Below the pieces are notes generated by a model. The model saw only the letters and a program-made list of their open reading frames with translations, made no database searches and was not told the origin of the DNA. Shown here piece after piece: positions 1 to 14,179 of a stretch of DNA of 14,179 nucleotides; within the stretch, counting starts at the first letter, position 1, and every line of letters begins with the position of its first letter. The DNA is from Sphaerochaetaceae bacterium. Its GTDB lineage: Bacteria; Spirochaetota; Spirochaetia; Sphaerochaetales; Sphaerochaetaceae. The position numbers and the translations under genes are program-made. The stretch spans positions 1-14,179 of the forward strand of contig JAILRW010000089.1 of the NCBI GenBank assembly GCA_024698005.1, read 5' to 3'.

Positions 1-585
1 TGTGTGTTGAGAGAGTGTGATTGGTTTTCCCTGGATCACGCTTGCTTGAAGACTGCGACAAATGGAGAAGTTTTCAGGGATGATCTAGGAGTATTCTCTG
101 CATTTAGAAACTATCTTCTTGGCTATTATCCAGACAGAGTCTGGAAATCGAGAATAGCAGAGAAGCTCCATGAATATGCAGCTGCTCTTCAGGTAAACTA
201 TGCAAGATGCATGACAAGAGGAGATGTTGTAACAGCAAATCTATGCAAAGCAAGAGGTGTAAGTGCTGCTATGGAGCTCTTCTTCCTTATGAAGAGGGAG
301 TACCCACCTTACTATAAATGGACATTCCGTGCACTCAAGGAGCTGGATACTGAGGGAAACTTTGCAAGAAAGATCCAGGAGCTTTCTGAAGAGGCAATCC
401 GTTTGGAAAACTGGGAAGGTACAAGATACCAGCCCAATCGTTTGAATTATCGTGATCCTATAGTCTCTATCTCAGAGGAACTTGCTTCCGAAATAGAGTT
501 CATGATGATAGAAAACAATTTGACAAAAATTAGAAGTAGATATTTAGAGACTCATGTTGATGAGGTACTTCCATTTAATACTTAG
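1..585 (+). CDS. DUF4037-like protein, C-terminal part (5' end lies upstream of the window)
   Basis: Frame 1 is open from base 1 to the TAG at 583-585, so the GTG at 4 in the ORF track is probably internal. The segments ATNGEVFRDDLGVFSAFRNYLLGYYPDRVW and PPYYKWTFRALKEL match my recollection of the conserved DUF4037 core, which usually follows a nucleotidyltransferase domain. It is convergent with the minus-strand cluster. Confidence 0.6.
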   Translation, partial: CVLRECDWFSLDHACLKTATNGEVFRDDLGVFSAFRNYLLGYYPDRVWKSRIAEKLHEYAAALQVNYARCMTRGDVVTANLCKARGVSAAMELFFLMKREYPPYYKWTFRALKELDTEGNFARKIQELSEEAIRLENWEGTRYQPNRLNYRDPIVSISEELASEIEFMMIENNLTKIRSRYLETHVDEVLPFNT

Positions 586-693: not shown

Positions 694-1491
694 TCAATTA
701 GGGATGGAGAAGAGTTTTTCTGCAGTTCTGTGGAAGATGTTCTCATACTCTTCGCTTGTGAGGTTCAAGGAAAGCATTGCATCAAGCTCAGGATCAACAT
801 CCCACATTGGGAAATCTGAACCAAACATAATCTTTTCAGAGCCGAATGTTCTTATATACTTTTTGACCTTATCTTTTTCTACCCAGTGGAAGGTGGATGA
901 GGTATCTACAAACAAATTGTCATAAGTGTGAAGCCTCTCTACAGCCTCATCCCAGACCGACCAGCCTGAAAAATGAGCTCCGATGAAGGTTGTTTTTGGA
1001 AACATCCTTAACACAGGTTCTAGCTGATCAGGATTGGAGTAGTTATAGCGGTAATCTCCAGTATGGATAAGCACAGGAAGTCTTCCTTCACAAGCCTCGT
1101 AGAGTGGAAGAAGTCTTTTGTCGTTTATTGCACATAACTGTGTATCAGGATGGAGCTTTATACCTTTTAGTCCCAGAGAGATGATTTTATCAACAATTCC
1201 ACCCATATCAGGATAGTCCTGATGTACAGTACCTAGTCCTGTAAAAAAGCCATCTCCGAGAAGAACGGTGTTTGATATGAATGCATTTATACTATCAGTC
1301 TGAGCGAGCCTTGTTGCAACTGAAAAGATCACGGCATGGTCTACGCCACTATTTTCCCAGTGCTTTTTCATGCTGGCTGCTCTGCCATCTCCATAGCTAT
1401 GGATCCCATCATAGAAATCAGAGACACTCTTTACTGCCTTCATGGCAATTGCCTCAGGATATACATGACAATGGGAATCGATAATACGCAT
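694..1491 (-). CDS. Amidohydro_2 (PF04909-type) metal-dependent TIM-barrel hydrolase
   Basis: ORF 694-1503. I prefer the ATG at 1491 (MRIIDSHCHVY) because GGAG at 1498-1501 lies 6 nt upstream and the TTG at 1503 sits in the terminator U-tract. Hallmark strand motifs are present: DSHCHV (HxH), GIKLHP, PVLIHTG, GAHFSG, DTSS, IMFGSDFP. Confidence 0.8.
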   Translation of the reverse strand: MRIIDSHCHVYPEAIAMKAVKSVSDFYDGIHSYGDGRAASMKKHWENSGVDHAVIFSVATRLAQTDSINAFISNTVLLGDGFFTGLGTVHQDYPDMGGIVDKIISLGLKGIKLHPDTQLCAINDKRLLPLYEACEGRLPVLIHTGDYRYNYSNPDQLEPVLRMFPKTTFIGAHFSGWSVWDEAVERLHTYDNLFVDTSSTFHWVEKDKVKKYIRTFGSEKIMFGSDFPMWDVDPELDAMLSLNLTSEEYENIFHRTAEKLFSIPN

Positions 1492-1501
1492 ATTTTGCTC
1501 C

Positions 1502-1536
1502 AAAAGAAGCTATATCCGAGAATCCTCGGATATAGC
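1502..1536 (-). terminator. Rho-independent terminator downstream of the oxidoreductase gamma gene
   Basis: Perfect 12-bp inverted repeat gctatatccgag (1509-1520) / ctcggatatagc (1525-1536) with a 4-nt loop. On the minus strand it is followed by UUCUUUU (1508-1502). It lies 33 nt after the stop codon at 1570-1572. Confidence 0.8.
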
Positions 1537-1569: not shown

Positions 1570-2106
1570 TTACTCTTCTATATAGTTATAGCCAGCATCA
1601 ATTGCCTTCAAGTTGAGATCGTACATCTCTGGATGTTTTGCAGAGACGACCTTCTTGAGAGCTTCTTCAAGATAACCTCTTGAGAGTTCAGAATCCTTCA
1701 GCACCTTACCGATAAGTACGATGTTTGCAAGATTTGAAGCGCCAATATCCTGGGCAATTTTAGTTGCAGGAATATAGAAAGCTTCTACATCTTTTCTCTG
1801 TACCTTTCTTCCGACCAAGGATGAGTCGACAAAAATTGCACCACCTGGTTTTACAGTAGATTCATAACGATCTAAGGAAGGAAGGTTCATTACAATGAGA
1901 ACATCAGGATTATCGATGATAGGGGAACCGACAGGCTCGTCACTGATAGTGACAGAGCAGGAAGCAGTACCACCTCTCATTTCAGGACCATAGGAAGGGA
2001 GCCAAGAGAGCTCTTTTCCCTCTGAAAGTGCCTTGTAGGCAAGCAGCTTGCCAGAGAAGAGAATACCCTGACCTCCGAAACCAGCGATGAGAATCTGTGT
2101 TGTCAT
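1570..2106 (-). CDS. 2-oxoacid:ferredoxin oxidoreductase, gamma subunit
   Basis: 178 aa. The N-terminus [22 protein letters not shown] carries the GGQG motif typical of POR/KOR/VOR gamma subunits. The ATG at 2104-2106 overlaps the beta stop codon (ATGA), indicating translational coupling. Confidence 0.85.
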
Positions 2107-2855
2107 GCCTTTGCCTCCTGGTCCTTATCCTTGAAAACTCCGAGTGGGTAGTAAGGAATCATGTTGTTATCAACCCATTCAAGTGCCTTCTGAGGTGTCA
2201 TGCCCCAGTTTGTAGGACAAGCTGAGACAACTTCGATAAGTGAGAAGCCCTTACCCTCAATCTGGTTTCTGAAAGCCTTTTCAATTGCTTTCTTTGCTTT
2301 GAGTACATTCTTTACATTGTTTGCTGCAACACGCTCAATGTAGTATGGAGCATCGAGTGCAGAAAGCATCTCACAGACTTTGATAGGATAACCTGCGACC
2401 TTTACATCACGGCCATAAGGTGAGGTCTGAGTGACCTGACCTGGCAGTGATGTAGGAGCCATCTGGCCACCTGTCATACCATAGATTGCATTGTTGACGA
2501 AGATGATTGTGATATTCTCATTTCTGGTAGCAGCATGGACTGTTTCAGCCATACCGATACTAGCGAGGTCTCCATCACCCTGATAGGTAAAGACAATATT
2601 TCCAGGAAGAGCTCTCTTGATACCTGTTGCAACTGCAGGTGCTCTGCCGTGAGCGGCTTCTACCATATCACAAGAGAAGTAATCATAAGCCATAACAGCA
2701 CAGCCTACTGGTGCAACACCAATAGTTCTTCCTTCGATGCCGAGTTTGTCAATTGCCTCTGCTACGAGACGATGGATGATTCCATGAGGACAACCTGGAC
2801 AGTAGTGGAGCTCCTTTGAAGTGAGGCTCTTTGGTTTTTCAAATACAATTGCCAT
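2103..2855 (-). CDS. 2-oxoacid:ferredoxin oxidoreductase, beta (TPP-binding) subunit
   Basis: TPP motif YQGDGDLASIG...IIFVNNAIYGMTGGQ and the CPGCPHG cysteine cluster. I chose the start at ATG 2853-2855 (MAIVFEKPK) because it overlaps the alpha stop codon (TAATG). The extra 35 codons in the ORF-track call (to 2960) lie inside the alpha CDS. Confidence 0.85.
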   Translation of the reverse strand: MAIVFEKPKSLTSKELHYCPGCPHGIIHRLVAEAIDKLGIEGRTIGVAPVGCAVMAYDYFSCDMVEAAHGRAPAVATGIKRALPGNIVFTYQGDGDLASIGMAETVHAATRNENITIIFVNNAIYGMTGGQMAPTSLPGQVTQTSPYGRDVKVAGYPIKVCEMLSALDAPYYIERVAANNVKNVLKAKKAIEKAFRNQIEGKGFSLIEVVSACPTNWGMTPQKALEWVDNNMIPYYPLGVFKDKDQEAKA

Positions 2856-3922
2856 TAGTTCTTTCCTCCTTCTGCAAGTTCCTTTGTGACCTTGATAATC
2901 TGATCGACACTTGGAATCATACCGCCAGCTCTGTTGCAAAGAACAACAGGTCTGAGGCACTCTTCTGCGAGTTTTACATCTTCGATCATCTGACCCATTG
3001 AAAGCTCTACACTGACAAAGCCTTTTACCTTATCGGCTGCTTCTCTGATTGCCTTCTTAGGGAATGGCCAGATTGTGATAGGTCTGATAAGACCGACCTT
3101 CAAGCCTTCCTTTCTCATAGCTGTGATTGCATTCTTTGCAACACGAGCTGCAATACCAAAAGCAACGAGAGCATAATCTGCATCGTCCATCATATAGCTT
3201 TCGTATCTGACCTCGTTCTTTTCGATTTCAGCGTAGCGTTCGAAACGCTCGAAGTTGGTCTTCTCAAGTACTTCTGGGGAAAGATAGAGGGAGTTGATTA
3301 TATTGTGTTCTCTCTTCATCTGTGTACCAGTTACAGCCCAAGGCTTTTCTATTCCAGATTCTTTTTCTTCAGGCAGGGCAACTGGCTCCATCATCTGGCC
3401 CATTGTACCATCAGCAAGCAGCATTGCAGGACAGCGATACTTATCGGCAAGATCGAAAGCGAGGCTTGTAAGGTCTGCCATTTCCTGAACAGAACTAGGT
3501 GTGAGAACTATAAGATGATAGTCTCCATGTCCACCGCCTTTGGTTGCCTGGAAGTAGTCGGACTGGGATGGCTGGATGCCACCAAGGCCTGGACCACCTC
3601 TCTGGACGTTTACAATTACTGCTGGAAGATCTGCACCAGCAATGTAAGAAATACCTTCCTGCTTGAGTGAAATTCCAGGGGAGGAAGAGCTGGTCATAAC
3701 ACGCTTACCGGTGCCTGCGACACCGTATACCATGTTGATTGCACTGATTTCACTTTCAGCCTGTAAAAAGACACCGCCTTCCATCTTGGGAAGCTTCTTT
3801 GCCATGTAGGCAGTAAGCTCTGTCTGTGGAGTGATCGGGTAACCGAAATAATGTCTGCAGCCAGCACGGAGAGCAGCCTCTGCAATGGCCTCATTTCCTT
3901 TCATCAATACTTTTTCTGGCAT
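2855..3922 (-). CDS. 2-oxoacid:ferredoxin oxidoreductase, alpha subunit (VorB/KorA-like)
   Basis: MPEKVLMKGNEAIAEAALRAGCRHYFGYPITPQTE is the typical alpha-subunit N-terminus. The start at ATG 3920-3922 is preceded by AAGGGGG (3928-3934) at 5-nt spacing. The ORF-track start at 3943 would overlap the delta gene. Confidence 0.85.
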   Translation of the reverse strand: MPEKVLMKGNEAIAEAALRAGCRHYFGYPITPQTELTAYMAKKLPKMEGGVFLQAESEISAINMVYGVAGTGKRVMTSSSSPGISLKQEGISYIAGADLPAVIVNVQRGGPGLGGIQPSQSDYFQATKGGGHGDYHLIVLTPSSVQEMADLTSLAFDLADKYRCPAMLLADGTMGQMMEPVALPEEKESGIEKPWAVTGTQMKREHNIINSLYLSPEVLEKTNFERFERYAEIEKNEVRYESYMMDDADYALVAFGIAARVAKNAITAMRKEGLKVGLIRPITIWPFPKKAIREAADKVKGFVSVELSMGQMIEDVKLAEECLRPVVLCNRAGGMIPSVDQIIKVTKELAEGGKN

Positions 3923-3932
3923 CCGAACCCCC

Positions 3933-4139
3933 TTATCTCTCAACCGTTATAACGCAGTCTGGACACATAGTTGCGCAGAATGCACAAGCTATGCACTTGC
4001 TCTGGTCAGTCATTACGGCAGGGTTGTGTCCCTTTTTGTTGATCTTGTTTCTGTCAAGCGCAAGTATGTGCTTTGGACAGGCGTCTACACAGAGCCCACA
4101 GCCCTTGCAGATGTCCTCATTGAATGTCACTTTCGCCAT
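3933..4139 (-). CDS. 2-oxoacid:ferredoxin oxidoreductase, delta subunit (2x[4Fe-4S] ferredoxin)
   Basis: 68 aa with two CxxCxxCxxxCP motifs (CKGCGLCVDACP and CIACAFCATMCP). It sits immediately upstream of the alpha subunit, giving the delta-alpha-beta-gamma order of four-subunit VOR/KOR/POR enzymes. Confidence 0.85.
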   Translation of the reverse strand: MAKVTFNEDICKGCGLCVDACPKHILALDRNKINKKGHNPAVMTDQSKCIACAFCATMCPDCVITVER

Positions 4140-4155
4140 AGGAATACCCCATAAT

Positions 4156-4800
4156 TTATATTTCGAATGGTCGTCTCTGAAGTTTCAGAGGGACCATATC
4201 CTCAGTTGCAATACTCTCTTCTGCAGCAGTATAGACAAGAGGAAGAAAAGTGGTCTCAGAGAGCTTCTGGGCTCTCTCATAAGTTGCTTGTATCTTCTCT
4301 ACTGTTGTCTCCTGTCCCAGATTCGAGTTGTTTATTATCCCAGTGAATTTAAGTCCACACGCTCCCTCTATCTCCCTCATGACCTCGATAGCTTCATCAA
4401 CTGTAGTAGTAAGAGGGCGATAAAAGTTGACGACATAGAACATGTCATAGTCATTTTCTTCCAAGATATATGGAACAAAACGGCCAAGAGCATAGGCTCC
4501 ACGGTCATCACCTCCGATATCGAGAACGGCGTAGCGGCTTTTATCCTCCACCAGAGCATACGTCTCGCTTGGTAAGGCAGGTAGGTCAACGCTACTGTTT
4601 GCAAACGGTAGCGCTATTACCTTTACACCTTCTTTTTCAAGCAGGTCTTTACTATCCTTGGACCTGAAATATGGGTTAACTATGTCTATATCTGCCAGAC
4701 TTACAGGAAGATTCTTCCTTCTGAGATAGAGGGCATAGTTTACGGCAAGATTGGTCTTGCCACTGCCATAGTGTCCACAGAATAGTGTCATTCTCTTCAT
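4156..4800 (-). CDS. P-loop NTPase of unknown function
   Basis: Walker A GHYGSGKT near the N-terminus and a Walker-B-like hhhhD segment AVLDIGGDD. The ATG is 3 nt after the aminotransferase stop codon. I could not assign a finer family by eye. Confidence 0.6.
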   Translation of the reverse strand: MKRMTLFCGHYGSGKTNLAVNYALYLRRKNLPVSLADIDIVNPYFRSKDSKDLLEKEGVKVIALPFANSSVDLPALPSETYALVEDKSRYAVLDIGGDDRGAYALGRFVPYILEENDYDMFYVVNFYRPLTTTVDEAIEVMREIEGACGLKFTGIINNSNLGQETTVEKIQATYERAQKLSETTFLPLVYTAAEESIATEDMVPLKLQRRPFEI

Positions 4801-4803
4801 GTT

Positions 4804-5898
4804 TTAAGCCTTGAGACCGAGCTTGTAGACCCAGCCCATGAAGTCTTCAACCTTGCCAGTCTGCATACCGTAGAGGTTGTCATAGAGCTTCTGAGCAACA
4901 GGACCGACCTTGCCATCACCTACGACGTAATCTTCACCCTTTACACAGAGTGTGCCGATAGGGGAGATGACTGCAGCAGTGCCGGAAGCGAAGATTTCCT
5001 TGAGGTGACCGCTCTTGCTTGCTTCCATGATCTCATCAATTGAAAGCTTTCTTTCTGTAATCTTGATGTTCCAGTGCTTGAGGAGCTGGATTACAGAGTC
5101 ACGAGTGATACCAGGAAGGATTGTCTCAGAGTCGAGTGGGGCTGTAATTACCTCATCATCGATCATGAAGAAGGCGTTGGATGTACCAATCTCTTCAACA
5201 TACTTGTGTTCAGCAGCATCGAGCCAGAGTACGTCCTTACAGTTGTACTTCATTGCATCCTGGCTTGCTCTCATGCCACCACCGTAGTTGCCACCGACCT
5301 TTGCATAGCCTGTGCCACCCTTGGCAGCACGGATGTACTTATCCTGGACGTAGATTCTAGTTGTAGATAGACCTCCATCGTTAGCAGCATAGTAGGAACC
5401 GGTTGGAGAGAGGATTACCATGAAGCGGTAGTGCTTTGCAGGAAGTACAGAGAAGGAAACCTCATCACCAAAGATGAATGGTCTGATATACAGTGCAGTA
5501 CCTGGTGCAGTTGGAACCCAATCAATATCTTCCTTGATAACAGCCTTGATACCAGCAAGAAGAATGTCACCTGGGAGCTCAGGAATACACATTCTTTCAT
5601 TGGTGCGTGCCATTCTCTTGACGTTCATATCTGGTCTGAAGATCTGGATATCGCCTTCGCTGGTTCTGTAAGCTTTCATGCCCTCGAACATCATCTGAGC
5701 ATAGTGAAGTACGCAAGATGCTGGTTCAATAAGAATTGGTTCGTGTGGAACAACTCTACCATCGTGCCATCCCTGACCCTCATCCCAGTCCATGCAGAAC
5801 ATGTGATCGGTGAAATACTGTGCGAATCCGAGCTTGGTCTGGTCAGTTGGCCTCTTTTTCGGATGTGTGGTCCTAGTTACTGGAAAATTGTACTCCAT
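4804..5898 (-). CDS. ilvE: Branched-chain amino acid aminotransferase (fold-type IV)
   Basis: GFAQYFTDHMF, HYAQMMFEGMKAYR, ALYIRPF, LSPTGSYY, GGTGYAKVGGNYG, EIGTSNAFF and LPGITR closely resemble long-form BCATs such as Bacillus YbgE/YwaA. I chose the start at ATG 5896-5898 (MEYNFPV) because AAGGAG lies 9 nt upstream. The ORF-track start at 5925 is a TTG that overlaps the preceding gene. Confidence 0.9.
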   Translation of the reverse strand: MEYNFPVTRTTHPKKRPTDQTKLGFAQYFTDHMFCMDWDEGQGWHDGRVVPHEPILIEPASCVLHYAQMMFEGMKAYRTSEGDIQIFRPDMNVKRMARTNERMCIPELPGDILLAGIKAVIKEDIDWVPTAPGTALYIRPFIFGDEVSFSVLPAKHYRFMVILSPTGSYYAANDGGLSTTRIYVQDKYIRAAKGGTGYAKVGGNYGGGMRASQDAMKYNCKDVLWLDAAEHKYVEEIGTSNAFFMIDDEVITAPLDSETILPGITRDSVIQLLKHWNIKITERKLSIDEIMEASKSGHLKEIFASGTAAVISPIGTLCVKGEDYVVGDGKVGPVAQKLYDNLYGMQTGKVEDFMGWVYKLGLKA

Positions 5899-5921
5899 AA
5901 AGCATATCTCCTTTTCCATAA

Positions 5922-6710
5922 TCAATTTACTTTGTATATATCAGGTCTTCTATCAGCAAAGACATTGATACTTGTTCTTATACCATCGAGAATGCTTGGG
6001 TCAAGAGTTGCATAAAGTATTTCTTCCTTATCCTTTGCATGTGCGATGGTTTCTCCCCATGGATCTGTAACAGAGCTGTTACCACCAAATACAGTTCCTG
6101 GAGCCTTGCCTGCTGAATTGCAGCAGACGACAAACATCTGGTTCTCAATAGCTCTTGCTTTTGTGAGTGCATCAAGGTGAGGCACTCTGACAAGTGGCCA
6201 CTGGGATACCATGAAGAGAACGTCGAGTCCCTTTGTGCTCATTGTTCTGATGAGCTCAGGGAAGCGAACGTCATAACAGATAATTACACCACATTTGAGT
6301 CCATCGAGGGTGAAGGTGGAAGTGTGGTTTCCTTTTTTGAAGAACTTGTCTTCCCCCATTGGTGAAAATAGGTGAGTCTTATCGTACTCAGCTACTACAT
6401 TTCCCTCGCGGTCGAATGTGTAGGATGTGTTGTAGATACCATCTGCTTTTTTATTGGCAATACTACCTGCAACAATGTTTACACCCAGCTCCTTGGCAAG
6501 AGGAGAGAATGTCGCTTTAAGCATTGCACCATCCTGATCTGCAAGCTTTTCCAGGTTTTCCTCTGGGAAAAAACCTACATTCCAGGTCTCTGGCAGAAGA
6601 ATGACATCAGGCTTCTTCTCTGCTGCTTCACGCACAAGAGCTACTGCCTTCTTGAAATTGTCTTCTGGCTTTGCAAAAGCCATATCCATTTGAATACAAG
6701 AGACCTTCAT
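5922..6710 (-). CDS. Carbon-nitrogen hydrolase (nitrilase superfamily; omega-amidase/Nit2/MtnU-like)
   Basis: 262 aa. Glu-Lys-Cys triad contexts are present: ILLPETW, YDKTHLF, GVIICYDVRFPE. GAGGAGG lies upstream of the ATG at 6710. Confidence 0.8.
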   Translation of the reverse strand: MKVSCIQMDMAFAKPEDNFKKAVALVREAAEKKPDVILLPETWNVGFFPEENLEKLADQDGAMLKATFSPLAKELGVNIVAGSIANKKADGIYNTSYTFDREGNVVAEYDKTHLFSPMGEDKFFKKGNHTSTFTLDGLKCGVIICYDVRFPELIRTMSTKGLDVLFMVSQWPLVRVPHLDALTKARAIENQMFVVCCNSAGKAPGTVFGGNSSVTDPWGETIAHAKDKEEILYATLDPSILDGIRTSINVFADRRPDIYKVN

Positions 6711-6721
6711 TATCTTCCTCC

Positions 6722-8983
6722 TCAGAGCATATTGCGGATAATCTTTCCGCTGATTGTCTTAGGAAGCTCGTCCCTGAAGACAATCTGTCTTGGATACTTG
6801 TAAGGTGCGGTGTGCGACTTTACATAGTTCTGGATTTCCTTCTTGAGATCCTCTGATGGTTCTGTTCCCTTTGTAAGAACGATAGATGCCTTTACAATCT
6901 GTCCTCTTACAGGATCTGGAGCAGCAGATACACCACACTCGAGAACGTAAGGGAGCTCCATGATTACAGACTCTACTTCGAATGGTCCGATTCTGTAGCC
7001 AGAGGACTTGATGATGTCGTCTACGCGACCGACATAGAAGAAGTAGCCATCCTCATCCTGCCATGCAGTATCACCTGTGTGGTAGAATCCATCGTGGATT
7101 GCTTCCTTGGTCTTCTCCTCATCCCTGTAGTACTCAGTAAAGAGACCAACTGGTCTTCCTTCAGAAAGATCGATGACGATTTCACCAACTTCACCTGGTG
7201 GTACTGGCTTTCCTTCATTGTCAACAAGCATGACCTTGTACTGAGGAGAAGCCTTACCCATAGAACCGAGCTTGACCTTTCCACCACCGAAGTTTGCAAC
7301 GGTAAGGGTTGTTTCGGTCTGGCCAAAGCCTTCGCAGATCTCCAATCCTGTTGCCTTGTAGAACTGTGTTGCAACCTCTGGGTTGAGTGCTTCGCCAGCT
7401 GTGGTCATATGCTTGACTGAACTGAAGTTGTACTTTGAGAGATCCTCTTTTATCATCATCCTGAGCATTGTAGGAGGTGCACAGAAGGTCTTGATCTGGT
7501 AGTTTGCAAACATAGGCATGATATCGTCTGCGTGGAAGCGATCGAAGTCGTAGACAAAGACAGCGCCTTCACACATCCACTGGCCATAGAGCTTGCCCCA
7601 GAGGGACTTGCCCCAGCCGGTATCGGAGATGGTGAGGTGAAGTCCATCAGGCTCGCAGCAGTGCCAATACTTTGCAGTGAGGAAGTGACCCAAAGCATAG
7701 GTGTGCTTGTGCTCGACCATCTTTGGGTTTCCTGTAGTACCAGAAGAGAAGAACATGAGTGCGGCTTCATCACCACATGGAGTCTTATCAGTTCTTCTGA
7801 GGGAGCTCTTGAATCTTGGATACTCCTCATTGAAGTCTCTCCAACCATCTCTCTGACCATTTACGATCATCTTGAGCTTAAGTGTTGGACAGTTTGGCTG
7901 TACCTTATCAACTGTTTCTGCACAGTCTCCATCAGCAGTACATACGATTGCCTTTATACCTGCAGCGTTGAAGCGGTATTCGAAGTCGTGCTCTCTGAGC
8001 TGGTAGGTTGCAGGAATAGCAACTGCTCCGATCTTGTGAAGAGCAACCATAGCAGGCCAGAACTGGTAATGTCTCTTGAGAACAAGCATTACCTTATCCC
8101 CTTGTTCGATTCCCAATGAGAGGAAGTAGTTTGCGACTCTGGCACTTTCCTTCTTTATATCCATGAAGGTAAGACGACGCTCTACCTTGTTCTTGTCAAG
8201 GTGGATCATAGCAAGTCTATCAGGATACTTTTCAGCAATTGCATCGACAACATCGTAACCGAAGTTGAACTTCTCTGTATTCTTGAATTTGACGTCTTTC
8301 AGGACACCCTTTTCATCTTCGATACAGTCGACGAACTTGTTGATAAGCAGTTTGCGTGTTGATGGTGCAGGTGCAAGAGATGCAGCTATGCTTGTATCAC
8401 CATTCTCATCCTCGCCAGGAAGGACAACTGCTACGAAGAGACAGTCCTTGCCGTCGATTGCAATCATGCCGTGTGGGGTAGAGGAGTTGTAATAGATACA
8501 GTCACCTTCATGGAGAACTTCCTTATTGGTTCCGACCTGTACAAGGAGAGAACCCTGGATGACGATATCGAATTCCTGTCCAGCGTGGGTTGCAAGCTGG
8601 ATTGGTTTTCCCTGAAGTTCTTCCGAGTAGTCGTACTTTACCCAGTAAGGCTCTGCAATCTTGTTCTTGAATTTAGGAGCAAGGTTCTGGATATCTATAC
8701 CCATCTCCTTTGCGGTCTGCTGACCCATGCCCTTACGGGTTATTGTGTAGGATGAAAGTCTTGTAGAATGACCTTCAAGCAGATCGGTAATATCGATTGC
8801 GAAAACCATTGCACACTTGTGAATGAAAGAGAAAGGAAGGTCTGCTTCTCCACTTTCATAAGCCTTGTATTCTGCAAGGGTCAGGTCAGTTTTCTGAGCC
8901 ATGGTGTTCTGAGAGAAACCCATGATCTCGCGCATGTCTCGAATTCTGGATGCGACTTCCAGAAGCTGTGATTCAGTATCCAC
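6722..8983 (-). CDS. Fusion protein: XRE-type HTH plus cupin (aa 1-190) joined to an ACSM-type medium-chain acyl-CoA synthetase (aa 211-753)
   Basis: GTG start at 8983 with GGAGG (8990-8994) 6 nt upstream. The N-terminus (REIMGFSQNTMAQKTDLTLAEYKAYESG) is an HTH_3-like segment. It is followed by cupin strands (HAGQEFDIVIQGSL...LHEGDCIYYNSSTPHGM). The C-terminal 540 aa carry AMP-binding motifs FFSSGTTGNPK, DTGWGKSLW, GFGQTETT, YHTGD, GRVDDIIKSSGYRIGPFEVE and LPKTISGKIIR, and resemble ACSM/MACS enzymes (APDPVRGQIVKA, APYKYPRQIVF). Confidence 0.85.
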   Translation of the reverse strand: MDTESQLLEVASRIRDMREIMGFSQNTMAQKTDLTLAEYKAYESGEADLPFSFIHKCAMVFAIDITDLLEGHSTRLSSYTITRKGMGQQTAKEMGIDIQNLAPKFKNKIAEPYWVKYDYSEELQGKPIQLATHAGQEFDIVIQGSLLVQVGTNKEVLHEGDCIYYNSSTPHGMIAIDGKDCLFVAVVLPGEDENGDTSIAASLAPAPSTRKLLINKFVDCIEDEKGVLKDVKFKNTEKFNFGYDVVDAIAEKYPDRLAMIHLDKNKVERRLTFMDIKKESARVANYFLSLGIEQGDKVMLVLKRHYQFWPAMVALHKIGAVAIPATYQLREHDFEYRFNAAGIKAIVCTADGDCAETVDKVQPNCPTLKLKMIVNGQRDGWRDFNEEYPRFKSSLRRTDKTPCGDEAALMFFSSGTTGNPKMVEHKHTYALGHFLTAKYWHCCEPDGLHLTISDTGWGKSLWGKLYGQWMCEGAVFVYDFDRFHADDIMPMFANYQIKTFCAPPTMLRMMIKEDLSKYNFSSVKHMTTAGEALNPEVATQFYKATGLEICEGFGQTETTLTVANFGGGKVKLGSMGKASPQYKVMLVDNEGKPVPPGEVGEIVIDLSEGRPVGLFTEYYRDEEKTKEAIHDGFYHTGDTAWQDEDGYFFYVGRVDDIIKSSGYRIGPFEVESVIMELPYVLECGVSAAPDPVRGQIVKASIVLTKGTEPSEDLKKEIQNYVKSHTAPYKYPRQIVFRDELPKTISGKIIRNML

Positions 8984-8998
8984 AACTTACCTCCGTAT

Positions 8999-9045
8999 AA
9001 AAAAAGCTCGTCTCAAAGACTTGCGAATTATCTTTGAGACGAGCT
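8999..9045 (-). terminator. T-box expression-platform terminator
   Basis: 15-bp perfect stem AGCUCGUCUCAAAGA (9045-9031) / UCUUUGAGACGAGCU (9019-9005) with an 11-nt loop, followed by a run of U to 8999. The 5' arm (CUCAAA, 9038-9033) can alternatively pair with UUUGAG (9093-9088) of the T-box motif to form the antiterminator. Confidence 0.9.
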
Positions 9046-9287
9046 ACATATCCAATCAAAGAATGAGATATGATACCCGCGGTACCACTCAAATTGCGCA
9101 TTTCTGCGCCACTCAGGCTCTATCAAGCCGTATGCCCTAACGCGGCAGGATCGGGGGCCCATTACTCACCATAAAATGGCTTTCCTTTCCCCAGCTCGGA
9201 AGTGATAGGATTACAGGCCCTTCGCTACTGGCTCACACCGTACCCAGCTCGCTGATGCTATCTTCCTGGTCCCTCTTCGTCTTAGCT
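8999..9287 (-). promoter_or_regulatory. T-box riboswitch leader (tRNA-sensing transcription attenuator), probable Ile (AUC) specifier
   Basis: Read on the minus strand. The K-turn-like stem I base is AGC-UAA-GA-C-GAAG (9287-9275) with CUUC-C-GA-GCU (9202-9193). AG box AGCGAG is at 9253-9248. The distal stem CUGG/CCAG carries a loop containing GGUGUGAG (9239-9232). Stem III is GCGCA-GAAA-UGCGC (9109-9096). The T-box motif AAUUUGAGUGGUACCGCGGG is at 9095-9076, and its UGGU bulge implies an A73 tRNA. An antiterminator/terminator alternative is present. The candidate specifier AUC (9206-9204) plus purine A (9203) lies directly 5' of the closing CUUC. Confidence 0.85.
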
Positions 9288-9296
9288 ATTAATTCG

Positions 9297-9325
9297 CTTT
9301 TACCATTTCAGAAAAAAAGAGTCAA
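9297..9325 (-). promoter_or_regulatory. Putative sigma-A promoter for the T-box leader
   Basis: Minus strand: -35 TTGACT (9325-9320), 17-nt spacer ending in TGG (extended -10), -10 TAAAAG (9302-9297). The -35 element overlaps the TGA stop codon (9322-9324) of the upstream ligase gene. The -10 is weak, so this call is tentative. Confidence 0.4.
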
Positions 9326-11778
9326 CAAAGATTGAACCTTTTTTCTGAAACCTCTTTCATTTTATATTTCAAGATCTTTCCCGCAGCGTTCATTGGGAAA
9401 CTTTCTACGAATACAAAGTAGCGAGGCACCTTGTGCTTTGCCATTGATTTGTAACCGTAATCCTTCATCTCTGCTTCGTCTGCACTCTGGCCATCATGCA
9501 AGATTACCCAGGCACAGGCCTCCTCGCCATAGACGTTATCCTTGACGCCGACTACCTGAACATCCTTTATCTTTGGATTTGTGAGATAGAACTCCTCGAT
9601 TTCTCTTGGATAGATATTCTCTCCTCCACGGATGATCATGTCCTTGAGACGACCTGTTACCTTGAAGTAGCCATCTGGGGTGCGGCAGCAGATATCGCCT
9701 GTATGGAGCCAACCATCGGCATCGATGGTCTTTGCTGTAGCTTCAGGCATCTTGTAGTAGCCTTTCATTATGTTGAAGCCTCTGGCAACGAACTCTCCAT
9801 TTTCTCCATCTGGCAGGTCTTTGCCAGTTTCAGGATCGATGATCTTGCACTCGACACCAGGGAAGGCAGAGCCTACAGTGTCTACTCTGTGGTCAAGGTC
9901 CTCATTTACTTCTCCCATGGTACAGCCAGGGGAGGATTCAGTCTGGCCGTATACGGACAGGATTTCCTTCATGTTCATTTCAACAGAGGCTCTTCTCATA
10001 AGATCTGCAGGGCAGTTTGCACCAGCCATGATTCCGGTTCTCATGTATGAGAAATCGGTCTTGGCAAAGTCAGCATGGTTGAACATTGCAATGAACATTG
10101 TAGGAACACCATTGAAGCAGGTGATTTTCTCTTGGTTTATGCAAGCAAGTGATGAGCGGGGTGAGAAGTATGGCATTGGACAGATGGTTCCACCGTGAGT
10201 CATCAGGTTAGTCATAGAAAGTACCATACCAAAGCAGTGGAACATAGGGACCTGGATCATCATTCTGTCTGCAGTAGAGATGTCCATTCTATCCCCGATA
10301 GTCTTACCGTTGTTGATGATATTCTTATGTGTCAGCATGACTCCCTTAGGAAAGCCAGTGGTTCCTGATGTGTACTGCATGTTACATACATCATCAGGTC
10401 TTACCATTGAAGCTCTTCTTCTGACCTCTTCCTGAGGAATGCTATCTGCACGCTCAAGCATCTGGTCCCAGTTGAGAGCCCCTTCCATGTCGAACCCGAC
10501 AGTTATTACATTTCTCAAAAAAGGCAGTCTCTTGGCAAAGAGAGGTTCTCCCTTCTTGTGCTTTTCAAGCTCAGGACAGAGCTCCTGGACAATTTCCTTG
10601 TAGCCAATATCCTTGAGGCTCTCGATCATGACGAGAGTGTGGGTATCTGACTGTCTGAGAAGATACTCGACTTCATGGATTTTATAAGCTGTGTTGACAG
10701 TGACAAGTACGGCACCGATCTTGGTCGCAGCCCAGAAGGATAAAAACCAGGCTGGGATGTTGGTTGCCCAGACAGCTACGTGGTAGCCAGGCTTTACTCC
10801 AAGGGAAATAAAGGCAGCAGCAACTGTATCTACATCCTTCTTGAATTCACTGTATGTCCTTGTGTAATCAAGGGTTGTATATTTGAATGCATACTGATCC
10901 GGATACTTTTCAGCCATAGTATCCAGAACCTCTCCAAAAGTTTTGTTTATAACCTTGTATTTCTTCCAAGGGAATGTGCCTGTTCTAGAGCGATTGAAAT
11001 AGATGGTGTCCTTCTTCTGGTTCTCTCCAGAAAGACGGGAGATGAAGGTTCCAAAGTGAGTGAGAACGATATCTGCATCCTGAACTTCATCATTCCAGTC
11101 AACTGCGAAGAAGCCTTCGTAGTTGAGGGACCTCAGGGCCTTGAGGAAATCCTCAACAGGAAGCTTTCCTTCACCGATAAGGACATTGGTATCATCAAGG
11201 CGGTCACCGATACGGACATATCGAATGTAGGCACCAAGTGTCTTTATTGTAGTCTCTGCACTCTCTCCTGCGAAGAAATAGCTCTCTCTAACATTCCAGG
11301 CAGCCCCGATAGCAGGGGAAGCAAAGACATTTATTATATCCAGAAGCTCACTGGTCTTTGAGAGAGGACCACTAGTTTCAAAGAGGATATCAATATTCTT
11401 CTTTTCCGCTATTTCTATGGCCTGCTCAAACTTCTTCAGGAGCTCTGTTGCATCCACTTGATCATCGATAGATACGATTACATTCTCAACTGATGATAGG
11501 GCAGCCATATCAATATACTGGACGAGAGATACAGCTGAAACCTCAGCGTGGTTTACTGGAAGAGGAAAGGTGATCGCGGAAACTTCTACAGAGTGGTTTC
11601 TCTGGGCAATTCTTCCTTCAGAGATCGACTCTGCTCTCAGAACACTGTCCGAGTGCTTATTTCTCTCTTCTGCTGCATCGTAGATTTCAAAACCATCCAT
11701 GCCATATTCAGAGGCAAAGCGACAGAGTGATGAGAAGGATGGCAGGTCAACATATCTTGTTGAAAAAGCTATCTTCAT
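9322..11778 (-). CDS. Fusion protein: xylose-isomerase-like TIM barrel (aa 1-250) joined to an AMP-dependent acyl-CoA ligase (FadD/ACSF2-like, aa 270-818)
   Basis: The N-terminal segments GMDGFEIY, ILFETSG, YIRYVRIGD and GEGKLPVEDFLKALRSLNYEGFFAVDW follow the pattern of AP_endonuc_2 / sugar-phosphate isomerase-epimerase barrels. The C-terminal part has QYTSGTTGFPKGVMLTH, YGQTESSP, GWLHTGD, GRLKDMIIRGGENIYPREIE and NAAGKILK. The ATG at 11778 overlaps the stop codon of the upstream gene by 4 nt (ATGA). Confidence 0.8.
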   Translation of the reverse strand: MKIAFSTRYVDLPSFSSLCRFASEYGMDGFEIYDAAEERNKHSDSVLRAESISEGRIAQRNHSVEVSAITFPLPVNHAEVSAVSLVQYIDMAALSSVENVIVSIDDQVDATELLKKFEQAIEIAEKKNIDILFETSGPLSKTSELLDIINVFASPAIGAAWNVRESYFFAGESAETTIKTLGAYIRYVRIGDRLDDTNVLIGEGKLPVEDFLKALRSLNYEGFFAVDWNDEVQDADIVLTHFGTFISRLSGENQKKDTIYFNRSRTGTFPWKKYKVINKTFGEVLDTMAEKYPDQYAFKYTTLDYTRTYSEFKKDVDTVAAAFISLGVKPGYHVAVWATNIPAWFLSFWAATKIGAVLVTVNTAYKIHEVEYLLRQSDTHTLVMIESLKDIGYKEIVQELCPELEKHKKGEPLFAKRLPFLRNVITVGFDMEGALNWDQMLERADSIPQEEVRRRASMVRPDDVCNMQYTSGTTGFPKGVMLTHKNIINNGKTIGDRMDISTADRMMIQVPMFHCFGMVLSMTNLMTHGGTICPMPYFSPRSSLACINQEKITCFNGVPTMFIAMFNHADFAKTDFSYMRTGIMAGANCPADLMRRASVEMNMKEILSVYGQTESSPGCTMGEVNEDLDHRVDTVGSAFPGVECKIIDPETGKDLPDGENGEFVARGFNIMKGYYKMPEATAKTIDADGWLHTGDICCRTPDGYFKVTGRLKDMIIRGGENIYPREIEEFYLTNPKIKDVQVVGVKDNVYGEEACAWVILHDGQSADEAEMKDYGYKSMAKHKVPRYFVFVESFPMNAAGKILKYKMKEVSEKRFNLC

Positions 11779-13169
11779 TTCTGGCTCTCCTCATAGGCAA
11801 TCTTGTTGAGTGCGTTGATGTATGCACGTATTGAAGCACCGACGATGTCGGAAGAAAGGCCATTTCCTGAGTAGAGCTTTCCATCACTTCTAAGTCTTAC
11901 AAGAGCACTTCCCAATGATTCCTTGCCTTCTGTTACTGCCTGGATCTGGAAATCATCAACCTCATACTGGTGTCCTACACACTGTTCTATTGCCATGAAG
12001 GCTGAATCGATAGGGCCACCACCTACGCCATTGCCACTGAGGTTTTCACCTCCCTTGTCGAGAACAACGTTGGTAACGCTGTTTACCTTGTTTGAGGTAG
12101 TAACAACGAAGGAAATCAAGTTGTAGGTTGCAGGGAACTGCATTGCACTTGATGCAATTATTGCCTCAAGCTCCTTGCTGGAAATGGAAGATTTCTTCTC
12201 GCAAAGGCTCATGAGAGCTTCGTAGACCTTGCCATTGTCATCTGGAGAGAGGTCGTATCCCAAGGATTTAACTGCTTCGGTTACCTGCTCTATGGAGCTT
12301 TCAGAGTCGAGGAAGATTGCTGAACCATCGAGGTGGAAATCCTCTTCCTCCTTCTTCTTGTTCTGTATCTTCTTGAGCATTGATTCGATATCGGAGTGAA
12401 GCTCAGTAAAGCGCAGGTTTGTAGCGATATCGAGATCACTTCCCTTGATCTTGAGAGCCTGGGCAAAGCTGTCGATTTTCAACGCATCCTTACCGTTTAT
12501 GCTGACTTTGACGCCATCTACGCCTGCCTTTATGGCCTGGAGAGCATTGGCAACAGCAAGGCTTATGCTATCAGATACTTTTACCATTACAGGAAGCTTT
12601 ACATTCTCTTTTATCTCTTTTACGAGAAGTGCGAAATCCTCTGGCATCAAGATTCCTGCATCATCAGAGATTGTGATGATGCCAGCACCTGCTTCCTTTG
12701 CAGCCTTGCAGGCCTGGATCAGGATTTCCTTGTCACTTCTTGTTGCATCGAGGGCCTCGAATTCTACATCTTCACAAACTCCTCTAGCCGCAAGCACAAG
12801 CTCCTTGAGCTTTTCAAGAAGTTTAGGTTCCTTAAGCCTGTACAGATACTCCATCTGAACGGTTGAGACAGGAAGTGAAATCTGAAGCCTTGGATGGAAT
12901 GCACTCTTGATGGATTCTGCAGCCAGCTTGACCTCTTCAACTTTGATTCCTGCAGGGATTGCAATGATTCTGTTCTTTACAGATTCAGAGATTGTCTTTG
13001 CGACAATCTTGTCTTCTCTAGGGTTCTTTATATAAGGTAGTTCGATCACATCAGCACCGTACCTACATAGACCTAGGGCAATAGCAAGCTTTTCTCTGAA
13101 TAAAAGCTGTGACTTTCCACTGCCACCAAGTTCTTTCAATGTGTAATCGGAAATAGTGATTCTTCTCAT
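11775..13169 (-). CDS. 2-isopropylmalate/citramalate synthase-like protein with a degenerate active site and a conserved LeuA-type C-terminal regulatory domain
   Basis: Start at ATG 13167-13169 (MRRITISDYTL) with AAAGGAG (13175-13181) 5 nt upstream. It is colinear with LeuA: the HMGL-like barrel (VEFEALDATR, ITISDDAGILMP, LAVANALQAIKAGVDGVKVSING) and the C-terminal domain (GNGVGGGPIDSAFMAIEQ...GKESLGSALVRL...GNGLSSDIVGASIRAYINALNKI). The catalytic motifs are replaced; see findings. Confidence 0.75.
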   Translation of the reverse strand: MRRITISDYTLKELGGSGKSQLLFREKLAIALGLCRYGADVIELPYIKNPREDKIVAKTISESVKNRIIAIPAGIKVEEVKLAAESIKSAFHPRLQISLPVSTVQMEYLYRLKEPKLLEKLKELVLAARGVCEDVEFEALDATRSDKEILIQACKAAKEAGAGIITISDDAGILMPEDFALLVKEIKENVKLPVMVKVSDSISLAVANALQAIKAGVDGVKVSINGKDALKIDSFAQALKIKGSDLDIATNLRFTELHSDIESMLKKIQNKKKEEEDFHLDGSAIFLDSESSIEQVTEAVKSLGYDLSPDDNGKVYEALMSLCEKKSSISSKELEAIIASSAMQFPATYNLISFVVTTSNKVNSVTNVVLDKGGENLSGNGVGGGPIDSAFMAIEQCVGHQYEVDDFQIQAVTEGKESLGSALVRLRSDGKLYSGNGLSSDIVGASIRAYINALNKIAYEESQK

Positions 13170-13216
13170 GTGATCTCCTTTCATGCTATTTGAGTAAATA
13201 GCTTTGCATGCTCACA

Positions 13217-13244
13217 ATTATTGCGAAACAGTTTAAAGAGTCAA
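13217..13244 (-). promoter_or_regulatory. Putative sigma-A promoter for the synthase-like/ligase genes
   Basis: Minus strand: -35 TTGACT (13244-13239), 16-nt spacer, -10 AATAAT (13222-13217). It lies about 45 nt upstream of the ATG at 13169, inside a 412-bp AT-rich intergenic region. Confidence 0.45.
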
Positions 13245-13581: not shown

Positions 13582-13905
13582 TCACATGATTCTGATAAGA
13601 AGCATGTAGCAAAGTGTTCCCACAATTATAGAAAGGTACATGTTCCTTCTTGTCCACTGAAGTAGGACTACAAGGAGGGATGAGATTATTTCAGGTAGAC
13701 CGAAAGGGTAAGAGGTGAAGTTACTGTTCCTGAGCAGGTAGATGACAAGGGTTGTCATTATGGCAGGTGGCAGCACTTTGCCAAGGTAAGAAAGCCACCA
13801 AGGGAGGCTTTTACCGGAAAAGAGCAGGAATGGAAGTGCTCTGAGAGTTGTTGTAACAGCTGCAATTGTCAAAATTGATACCAGGATTGTGGCTGTATCA
13901 TTCAT
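13582..13905 (-). CDS. azlD: Branched-chain amino acid transport protein AzlD
   Basis: 107-aa hydrophobic protein (LRALPFLLF...LPPAIMTTLV...) with the size and pattern of AzlD. Its ATG (13903-13905) overlaps the end of the upstream AzlC-like ORF by 8 nt. Confidence 0.8.
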   Translation of the reverse strand: MNDTATILVSILTIAAVTTTLRALPFLLFSGKSLPWWLSYLGKVLPPAIMTTLVIYLLRNSNFTSYPFGLPEIISSLLVVLLQWTRRNMYLSIIVGTLCYMLLIRIM

Positions 13906-14179
13906 ATATGATTCCCTCCTGCTTTTCTATTTTCCTGTGAAGAGTGATGAGGAGAATGGATGTGATAATGAGGGATGGGATAATGAAGTAATCCTTTCCG
14001 ATCAGCACAATCAGAACAAGGGAAACTGTTGATGCCAGGAAGAAGGGCAGTTTTGTTCTATACCTTCTTATCTGGTCTACTACAACTACTATGAAAAGGG
14101 CAGTTGCAGAGAAATCGATGCCTGCCGTATCGATACCGAATGCTCTTCCTGTGTAGGCACCGATGAAACAGCCAACAAT
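13898..14179 (-). CDS. azlC: AzlC-family branched-chain amino acid permease/exporter subunit, C-terminal part (start lies beyond the window)
   Basis: Not in the ORF track because no start codon falls in the window. My manual translation of the minus strand from 14179 gives IVGCFIGAYTGRAFGIDTAGIDFSATALFIVVVVDQIRRYRTKLPFFLAS...HRKIEKQEGIIYE, ending at the TGA at 13898-13900. It is hydrophobic, AzlC-like, and sits in the canonical azlC-azlD arrangement. Confidence 0.65.
   Translation of the reverse strand: MVGCFIGAYTGRAFGIDTAGIDFSATALFIVVVVDQIRRYRTKLPFFLASTVSLVLIVLIGKDYFIIPSLIITSILLITLHRKIEKQEGIIYE

Follow-up and report, generated by a model that had tools for sequence, protein, structure and literature searches.

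A T-box-controlled operon of a Sphaerochaetaceae bacterium that probably makes isoleucine from exogenous 2-methylbutyrate

A 14,179-nucleotide (nt) stretch, here termed the window, which makes up nearly all of contig JAILRW010000089.1 (14,180 nt) and comes from a metagenome-assembled genome (MAG) of the Sphaerochaetaceae (Spirochaetota), was analysed for its open reading frames (ORFs), protein domains and RNA structures. Eight co-directional genes were found on the minus strand (nt 8983..1570), placed between a T-box leader (nt 9292..8999) and a terminator (nt 1536..1509), and the operon that they form probably makes isoleucine (Ile) from exogenous 2-methylbutyrate, that is, it would work in the anabolic direction. 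We infer substrates, direction and induction of the operon from its sequence. The same anabolic route, leading from branched short-chain acids to branched-chain amino acids (BCAA), had been proposed in an initial annotation of this DNA, and we hold it to be likely in view of the resemblance of the first enzyme to the acyl-CoA ligase MacsMa, an oxidoreductase of the VorB family, a branched-chain amino acid aminotransferase (BCAT), the Ile specifier of the T-box, and the T-boxes for valine (Val) and leucine (Leu) that accompany paralogous ligases in other genomes.

Coordinates and description of the eight-gene unit, as first annotated, were borne out by ORF, domain and hairpin analysis (Table 1). 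Starting from the leader, the genes encode an HTH-cupin::ligase fusion, a Nit2-like carbon-nitrogen (C-N) hydrolase, the BCAT, a P-loop NTPase and then the delta, alpha, beta and gamma subunits of an oxidoreductase, with intergenic gaps, in gene order, of 11, -4, 3, 16, 10, -1 and -4 nt. Three of the values are negative: the ATG of the beta subunit overlaps the alpha stop codon by 1 nt, the beta and gamma genes overlap by 4 nt, and the -4 nt at the hydrolase/BCAT junction depends on the start chosen for BCAT. The ATG at nt 5898 has a good AAGGAG ribosome-binding site, better than that at nt 5925, and is the start adopted by NCBI; if BCAT begins there, the gap passes from -4 to +23 nt, and this is the one junction for which the originally indicated spacing of 0-16 nt did not stand. 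In the NCBI records (MCR5732121-MCR5732129) the proteins of the window carry generic names, including 'AMP-binding protein', 'carbon-nitrogen family hydrolase', 'branched-chain amino acid aminotransferase', 'hypothetical protein', '4Fe-4S binding protein', 'VorB', '2-oxoglutarate oxidoreductase' and '2-oxoacid:acceptor oxidoreductase family protein'.

The product of the first gene was resolved by Pfam and NCBIfam into an HTH_XRE domain (nt ~8950..8771), a cupin domain (nt ~8599..8426) and a MACS/ACSM-type AMP-forming acyl-CoA synthetase (nt 8311..6725); the fusion of HTH_XRE and cupin to the ligase is a point absent from the first reading. In the ligase part, AMP-binding and AMP-binding_C were recognised at 6.9e-65 (PF00501) and 4e-21 (PF13193), and residues 225-750 showed 53% identity over 526 residues (E 1.5e-188) to MacsMa (PDB 3ETC). 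Alignment of the two proteins places the pocket residue Trp259 of MacsMa at Trp462 of the window ligase, in which the adenylation motifs YHTGD and PKTISGK (PKTxSGK) are conserved as well. An AMP-forming enzyme of ACSM type had been annotated here, in agreement with the AMP-binding domains, the identity to MacsMa and the top NCBIfam match, MbcS; human ACSM2A is the next structural relative, and the 'ACSM-type' label is therefore fair. MacsMa, the MA4008 protein of Methanosarcina acetivorans, has 2-methylbutyrate as its preferred substrate, and it keeps the adenylate and completes the CoA thioester with 2-methylbutyrate but not with most other acids (PMC10455477). MbcS is a branched short-chain acyl-CoA synthetase of Staphylococcus aureus (PMC10026030, PMC11167679). 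Both of the nearest relatives with a known function, MacsMa and MbcS, thus activate branched short-chain acids. Homology, together with the Ile and Val T-boxes described below, makes the window ligase a candidate 2-methylbutyrate-CoA ligase.

The last four genes specify the domains of a four-subunit alpha/beta/gamma/delta set (POR_N + PFOR_II, TPP_enzyme_C, POR and two Fer4, according to Pfam), as expected from the four-subunit oxidoreductase of VOR/KOR type that had been annotated. The alpha subunit passes the VorB model (NF005507, 553.6 bits vs a cutoff of 399), which we take to be named after the methanogen enzyme, and has 1YD7 as its closest PDB match; the delta subunit matches OGOR_delta and PorD_KorD below cutoff. 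Gene context points to a putative oxidoreductase acting on branched 2-oxoacids and acyl-CoA. For the BCAT, two equivalog models were passed (NF009897, 446.5 bits vs a cutoff of 307; TIGR01123, 356 vs 250), and its initial assignment to class IV is retained.

RF00230 was not reported in the window by the default Rfam search, for which the curated gathering threshold of this family is 93 bits, and was found only when an E-value threshold was used; the orthologous leaders of the Clostridial loci (L013) score 96-101.5 bits and lie above the Rfam threshold. In the window leader, Stem I has a K-turn at its base; an AG bulge, a distal loop and a specifier loop are likewise present. The specifier, AUC (Ile), was located at nt 9206..9204, with AUC-A-CUUC aligned to the codon-plus-purine position of RF00230, and covariance-model alignment gave the same register in the above-threshold leaders. 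Read in register with the Rfam model, the probable Ile specifier of the initial annotation is thereby confirmed. All 46 of the 46 non-identical orthologous leaders that were aligned keep this specifier, the T-box core and the shared GUCUCAA unchanged, while their stems vary with compensating changes. In the window the core, AAUUUGAGUGGUACCGCGGG, lies at nt 9095..9076 and includes the UGGU (nt 9087..9084), which implies an A73 discriminator, usual for tRNA-Ile, tRNA-Val and tRNA-Leu. The predicted antiterminator consists of helix A1, a 7-nt UGGUACC bulge and helix A2 (-18.6 kcal/mol), and the competing leader terminator (nt 9045..8999) of a 16-bp stem followed by a U run, with CUCAAAG common to both structures. 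The terminator scan did not pick up the leader terminator because of its 9-nt loop. Next come a GGAGG and, 6 nt further on, the GTG with which the ligase starts. The leader is kept in the six closest loci (L002-L007, with L004 cut at the 5' end), where specifier and core are invariant, and its stems vary with compensating changes, e.g., CUGG/CCAG versus CCGG/CCGG. Judging from its sequence and predicted fold, the window T-box is real but divergent, with all functional parts intact.

Relatives of the ligase fusion protein are encoded in at least 583 stretches of the collection scanned, which holds one genome per species, and the locus counts were drawn from the best 80 of these. The best 80 loci belong to Sphaerochaetaceae and, mostly, to rumen and gut Clostridia (Acutalibacteraceae, Oscillospiraceae and Christensenellaceae), and in them the full-length fusion is conserved, with ~70% identity over all 753 residues. 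Within the species-genome collection, the closest relative is a Spirochaetales MAG from roe-deer rumen, whose ligase is 94% identical. For the synteny count, only loci whose sequence runs on for at least 6.5 kb past the last ligase gene were used; in 43 of these 47, the ligase(s), the P-loop gene and vorDABG were found together, and 40 of the 43 have the BCAT too. The flanking genes, unrelated housekeeping genes, differ among loci, which marks the cluster as a self-contained unit.

Many Clostridia were found to carry two tandem HTH-cupin::ligase paralogues, with its own T-box for every copy; a paralogue with a Val T-box is, e.g., that at L013:10305-12563. Reading the specifiers in the register set by the basal helix of Stem I, the orthologues of the window ligase are preceded by AUC (Ile) in 76 cases out of 77 and the second paralogue by GUA (Val) in 54 out of 57, while a third T-box, with a CUC (Leu) specifier in 21 out of 24, precedes a LeuA-like gene and a TIM-barrel::ligase gene. 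The same three codons came at the specifier position when the three above-threshold leaders of L013 were aligned to the covariance model. Three T-boxes (Ile, Val and Leu) per cluster occur in L009, L013, L015 and many other loci, e.g., at L013:7026-7265, 9979-10219 and 2804-3030. According to a published survey, every experimentally verified T-box carried a specifier that agreed with the role of the gene under its control (PMC2494555). A shared VOR and BCAT surrounded by Ile-, Val- and Leu-gated ligases is what would be expected of a pathway in which isobutyrate, 2-methylbutyrate and isovalerate are each activated by an enzyme of their own before passing through common carboxylation and amination steps, and the coexistence of three BCAA-specific T-boxes and three ligases with one VOR and BCAT would be very hard to explain except by acid-to-BCAA synthesis.

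In the mechanism that we propose for this probable salvage and biosynthesis operon, the anticodon of uncharged tRNA-Ile would pair with the AUC specifier and its free 3' end with the UGGU bulge, and the antiterminator, stabilised in this way, would let RNA polymerase pass the leader terminator into the eight genes. Such an action would follow from established knowledge of T-boxes, which switch genes on when the cognate tRNA is uncharged, the RNA parts themselves having been found in the leader. The MacsMa-like domain would then convert 2-methylbutyrate into 2-methylbutyryl-CoA at the expense of ATP, which is split into AMP and PPi; the VorB-family oxidoreductase would combine 2-methylbutyryl-CoA with CO2, using reduced ferredoxin, to give 3-methyl-2-oxopentanoate, and the BCAT would turn this into isoleucine. 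AMP-forming ligases run towards acyl-CoA, and 2-oxoacid:ferredoxin oxidoreductases are reversible. In Clostridia, the unit is extended to all three BCAA, with the Ile T-box preceding ligase 1, the Val T-box ligase 2, and the Leu T-box the dead LeuA-like protein plus the TIM-barrel::ligase.

Other explanations were weighed against Ile synthesis from 2-methylbutyrate. Isoleucine could also arise if the ligase activated propionate and the oxidoreductase worked as a 2-oxobutyrate synthase, followed by IlvBN/C/D and, as the last step, by the operon BCAT. Ile-specific control would equally be expected for such a route, propionate is abundant in the rumen, and the formation of Ile from propionate is known in anaerobes. 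MacsMa, moreover, can adenylate propionate (PMC10455477). We nevertheless consider propionate an unlikely precursor, given the thioester selectivity of MacsMa already mentioned, the VorB family of the alpha subunit and the lack of ilvBN/C/D in or beside the cluster in any inspected locus; furthermore, the paralogue with the Val T-box relies on the same VOR and BCAT, which argues against this route since Val cannot be derived from propionate. It is likewise improbable that the operon supplies lipid primers, with the ligase scavenging branched acids as fatty-acid primers and VOR and BCAT running from amino acid to acyl-CoA. Rumen bacteria do incorporate branched volatile fatty acids into lipids. 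MbcS, the top NCBIfam match, has an established role in branched-chain fatty acid synthesis (PMC10026030, PMC11167679). Three amino-acid-specific T-boxes, on the contrary, suit a need for amino acids and not lipid status, the cluster contains no fatty-acid synthesis genes, and breaking down Ile through induced BCAT and VOR would be counter-productive for a cell starved of it. As a side benefit, acyl-CoA produced by the ligase could feed lipids.

An operon in which BCAT and VOR oxidise BCAA to acyl-CoA for energy, the ligase being incidental, appears extremely unlikely. Both enzymes are reversible and are used oxidatively in peptide fermenters such as Pyrococcus (PMC3942289). However, the gene that directly follows each riboswitch in the best 80 loci is the ligase, and the pattern of specifiers and ligases speaks against catabolism. 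Where catabolism conserves energy, it relies on ADP-forming synthetases or phosphotransacylase/kinase pairs instead of AMP-forming ligases, and T-boxes turn on under starvation for the cognate amino acid; on these two grounds, AMP-forming ligase and T-box logic, the catabolic direction was rejected. We also judge it very unlikely that the spirochaete T-box is a non-functional relic of horizontal transfer, with the operon constitutive or read from an upstream promoter. In favour of a relic are the Rfam score below threshold, the occurrence of T-boxes mainly in Firmicutes (PMC2494555), and the fact that a sigma-70-like promoter was scored 5' of the LeuA-like gene and none directly 5' of the leader. 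A relic is at variance with the intact functional parts of the window leader and with the leaders of L002-L007, which keep specifier and core invariant while their stems show compensatory changes.

For the synthesis of Ile from 2-methylbutyrate, which remains the reading that we prefer, some observations weigh on the opposite side. The substrate of the ligase cannot be read from sequence, and its MbcS match, with 442 bits, stays under the 850-bit equivalog cutoff. The beta, gamma and delta subunits match only generic models of 2-oxoacid or 2-oxoglutarate type, all below cutoff, and beta is the subunit named '2-oxoglutarate oxidoreductase' by NCBI; a 2-oxoglutarate enzyme is disfavoured by the VorB model and by the gene context. 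In the two-ligase layout of Clostridia the VOR genes lie behind the Val T-box, and Ile starvation alone is therefore not an obvious inducer of VOR; in the Clostridial clusters with three T-boxes VOR has the same position, and the same applies to starvation for Ile or Leu alone. The RF00230 match of the window (nt 9292..9061; 46 bits, E 1.4e-7) does not reach the gathering score of 93, no consensus promoter was detected by the promoter scan directly 5' of the T-box leader, and the roles given to the hydrolase, the NTPase and the HTH-cupin domain are guesses.

As to the promoter, inspection by eye revealed a weak candidate 5' of the leader, TTGACT-17-TAAAAG with a TG, part of which coincides with the stop codon of the preceding gene. 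The motif TTGACTCTTT is present on the minus strand both before the leader (nt 9320-9325) and before the LeuA-like gene (nt 13239-13244). The two copies may be -35 elements; only the one 5' of the LeuA-like gene scored as promoter-like.

The N-terminal HTH-cupin module of the ligase (nt 8983-8312) resembles stand-alone XRE-cupin regulators of ~185 aa, with 31-40% identity. Ile-type and Val-type ligases can be told apart at 15 positions, of which 12 fall in this module, those in the ligase domain being only C443V, G458A and A578P; this hints at a module that senses something branch-specific. It may be a feedback sensor, or the fusion may be a BirA-like enzyme and repressor. Speculatively, the HTH-cupin domain would probably add a further tier of regulation that responds to a ligand.

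Two of the eight genes, those for the C-N hydrolase and the P-loop NTPase, were unnamed in the first reading. The hydrolase has the E-K-C triad, with LPET, YDKTHLF and ICYDVRFPE in its translation. Its PDB matches are S. aureus 3P8K, mouse Nit2 (2W1V, at 1.3e-35) and yeast Nit3 (1F89); these three proteins, of which the last two are omega-amidases, are its nearest relatives, with all NCBIfam models below cutoff. The hydrolase gene accompanies the BCAT in 12/12 loci that have the 75-99%-identical BCAT type, and in 0 loci having the 45-51% BCAT type, which suggests that hydrolase and its BCAT type form a functional aminotransferase-amidase pair. With low confidence, we propose that the hydrolase removes a transamination by-product, which could be 2-oxoglutaramate if glutamine were the amino donor, and that it would thereby pull the last step forward, a speculative part of the mechanism.

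The P-loop NTPase had no PDB sequence homologue and no Pfam family above threshold, and its more than 8,000 homologues are unnamed. An AlphaFold2 model (pLDDT 83) found its best Foldseek matches in the G domains of the SRP proteins Ffh and FtsY (TM 0.6-0.67), a generic SIMIBI/SRP-GTPase similarity of the fold only. The P-loop gene adjoins vorD on its upstream side in 58/58 loci. We tentatively assign to the NTPase, with low confidence, a service in the assembly or maturation of VOR; this part of the mechanism too is speculative.

Upstream of the leader lie the LeuA-like gene and the TIM-barrel::ligase gene, which overlap by 4 nt (translational coupling). In the LeuA-like protein KELGG stands in place of RDGEQ, KVS in place of HxH and NGKDAL in place of GERAGN, these motifs being lost in all orthologues too; the LeuA_dimer domain is kept (PF08502 at 1.2e-28), and all LeuA models remain below cutoff. 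A working isopropylmalate synthase was ruled out by this motif loss in the protein and its orthologues, and the protein is, as far as its motifs tell, a catalytically dead pseudoenzyme. The initial annotation had seen in it a reinforcement of the BCAA theme: this does not hold for an enzyme, and stands only for a probable leucine-sensing partner of the third ligase. That ligase, the TIM-barrel::ligase, has 26% identity to the first one and is a candidate isovalerate-activating enzyme. The pair of genes sits behind the CUC (Leu) T-box in Clostridia; in the window it has no T-box of its own, and an AT-rich region with a sigma-70-like site was found upstream.

Table 1. Features of the window, with their coordinates and the evidence for each.
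Feature	Position (nt)	Strand	Evidence
T-box leader	8999..9292	-	Stem I + K-turn, AUC specifier, core, terminator; RF00230 46 bits
HTH_XRE-cupin::acyl-CoA ligase fusion, 753 aa	6722..8983	-	Pfam, NCBIfam, PDB 3ETC similarity
C-N hydrolase, Nit2/Nit3 branch	5922..6710	-	PF00795 at 8.4e-53
BCAT, class IV, ilvE_II type	4804..5925 (likely start ATG 5898, 364 aa)	-	NF009897, TIGR01123
SIMIBI-class P-loop NTPase, 214 aa	4156..4800	-	Weak CbiA match below cutoff; fold search
Oxidoreductase delta, 2x[4Fe-4S] ferredoxin-like, 68 aa	3933..4139	-	Fer4 domains
Oxidoreductase alpha, VorB family	2855..3922	-	POR_N + PFOR_II; NF005507
Oxidoreductase beta, TPP-binding	2103..2855	-	PF02775 at 4e-23
Oxidoreductase gamma	1570..2106	-	PF01558 at 5e-41
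Intrinsic terminator, operon end	1509..1536	-	12-bp stem, 6 GC pairs, T-rich tail
Xylose-isomerase-like TIM barrel::AMP-forming acyl-CoA ligase, 818 aa	9322..11778	-	Pfam; NF009233 648 bits
LeuA-like pseudoenzyme (predicted)	11775..13184	-	HMGL-like barrel without catalytic motifs; LeuA_dimer kept
AzlD, small subunit of branched-chain amino acid transporter	13582..13905	-	PF05437 at 1.5e-22
AzlC-like C-terminal fragment, cut by window edge	13897..14179		Reading frame
Amidohydro_2 family protein	694..1503	-	PF04909 at 8e-29
DUF4037 protein at window edge	4-585	+	Opposite strand

Among the neighbouring genes, those for the transporter AzlCD had been annotated in the same locus: AzlD was recognised by its Pfam family, while the AzlC fragment at the window edge had no Pfam recognition. 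An Amidohydro_2 gene follows directly after the operon terminator, and in ~11 Clostridial loci it is found between the TIM-barrel::ligase and the Ile T-box; it recurs at the cluster in other genomes and therefore travels with it. The Amidohydro_2 family (PF04909) includes reversible decarboxylases. The DUF4037 gene is also syntenic in L002 and has no visible relation to the operon.

The proteins of the cluster are 70-92% identical between the spirochaete and Clostridia. T-boxes are found mainly in Firmicutes, and Spirochaetes are outside the phyla reported as carriers in a 2008 survey (PMC2494555). Owing to this identity and to the absence of the host phylum from the carriers surveyed, operon and riboswitch appear to have been acquired by the spirochaete from Clostridia through horizontal transfer. 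A wider reading, which we regard as possible but on the whole doubtful, would see in the cluster a mobile acid-to-BCAA module with three T-boxes, sensors built into the ligases, an NTPase-driven VOR, an amination made irreversible by an omega-amidase, and a transfer from Clostridia to Spirochaetota. In such a module, the two HTH-cupin ligases could be feedback receptors or BirA-like proteins, the third ligase could be paired with a leucine-binding dead LeuA, and a dedicated SIMIBI NTPase would be needed to make VOR or to drive it reductively.

The chemistry predicted for the operon is that of the reductive-carboxylation route, from acid to acyl-CoA, to 2-oxoacid (by a ferredoxin-dependent VOR) and to amino acid (by BCAT). 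Isobutyrate, 2-methylbutyrate and isovalerate are required by many anaerobes of rumen and gut, or are of benefit to them, and labelling from the 1960s onward has these acids entering Val, Ile and Leu by reductive carboxylation; an anabolic VOR is known from Methanothermobacter. Reductive carboxylation of 2-methylbutyrate is an accepted Ile route in some rumen organisms and was invoked for Methanobrevibacter ruminantium (PMC2812497). In the literature searched, the route is described physiologically or for VOR only, without an operon, a dedicated ligase or a regulator, whereas in the window all of these are gathered in one operon. The ligase resembles MacsMa in overall identity, pocket Trp and adenylation motifs, and MbcS as its top NCBIfam family; it differs from both characterised enzymes by a 224-residue HTH_XRE-cupin extension, which they lack, and by being T-box-controlled in one operon with VOR and BCAT, while MbcS serves lipid synthesis. 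The T-box BCAA genes of Firmicutes (ileS, valS, leuS, the ilv-leu operon, transporters) share riboswitch architecture and logic with the leaders described here, whose specifiers are AUC, GUA and CUC; their products, however, are tRNA synthetases, the acetolactate pathway and transporters, and not, as in this spirochaete, a ligase, a VOR and a BCAT. Acyl-CoA, ferredoxin and oxidoreductase genes are unmentioned among the targets in the 2008 T-box survey (PMC2494555).

Partial analogies exist for two of the accessory parts. BirA, too, joins an N-terminal helix-turn-helix to an adenylate-forming enzyme, an analogy of function with no sequence relationship; unlike the window ligase, whose DNA binding is putative, it is without a cupin domain. 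Pairs of a glutamine transaminase and an omega-amidase (Nit2/Nit3), e.g., those of methionine salvage, likewise associate a Nit2-branch hydrolase with an aminotransferase, but the aminotransferase of the window pair belongs to the class IV BCATs, for which no use of glutamine is known.

The initial annotation was not aware of any tRNA-regulated cluster assigned to this route, and in agreement with it no prior assignment was found in the full-text literature searched and in the 2008 T-box survey; many subscription papers lie outside that coverage, and prior work is possible. Chemistry, enzymes and riboswitch are of kinds already known. The novelty appears to lie in tying the entire route to a bacterial operon, in the control of this route by T-boxes whose specifiers match, and in the accessory components.

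The cluster offers a bacterial gene set for the whole route, and would thereby explain at the level of genes an observation made in rumen and gut bacteria 60 years ago. It is compact, and its Ile, Val and Leu specifiers label, within the cluster itself, the predicted substrate of each of the three ligases. With it, the genes regulated by T-boxes gain a new class, and a riboswitch that appears to have moved between phyla together with its operon is exemplified. Three uncharacterised types of protein are brought to notice: the fusion of HTH-cupin and ligase, the dead LeuA-like protein that accompanies the third ligase, and the SIMIBI NTPase associated with VOR. Recognition of the cluster would allow organisms able to use branched acids in place of BCAA synthesis or import to be predicted from their genomes, and would help to interpret branched-acid supplementation in ruminant feeding and to refine models of amino-acid cross-feeding in the gut.

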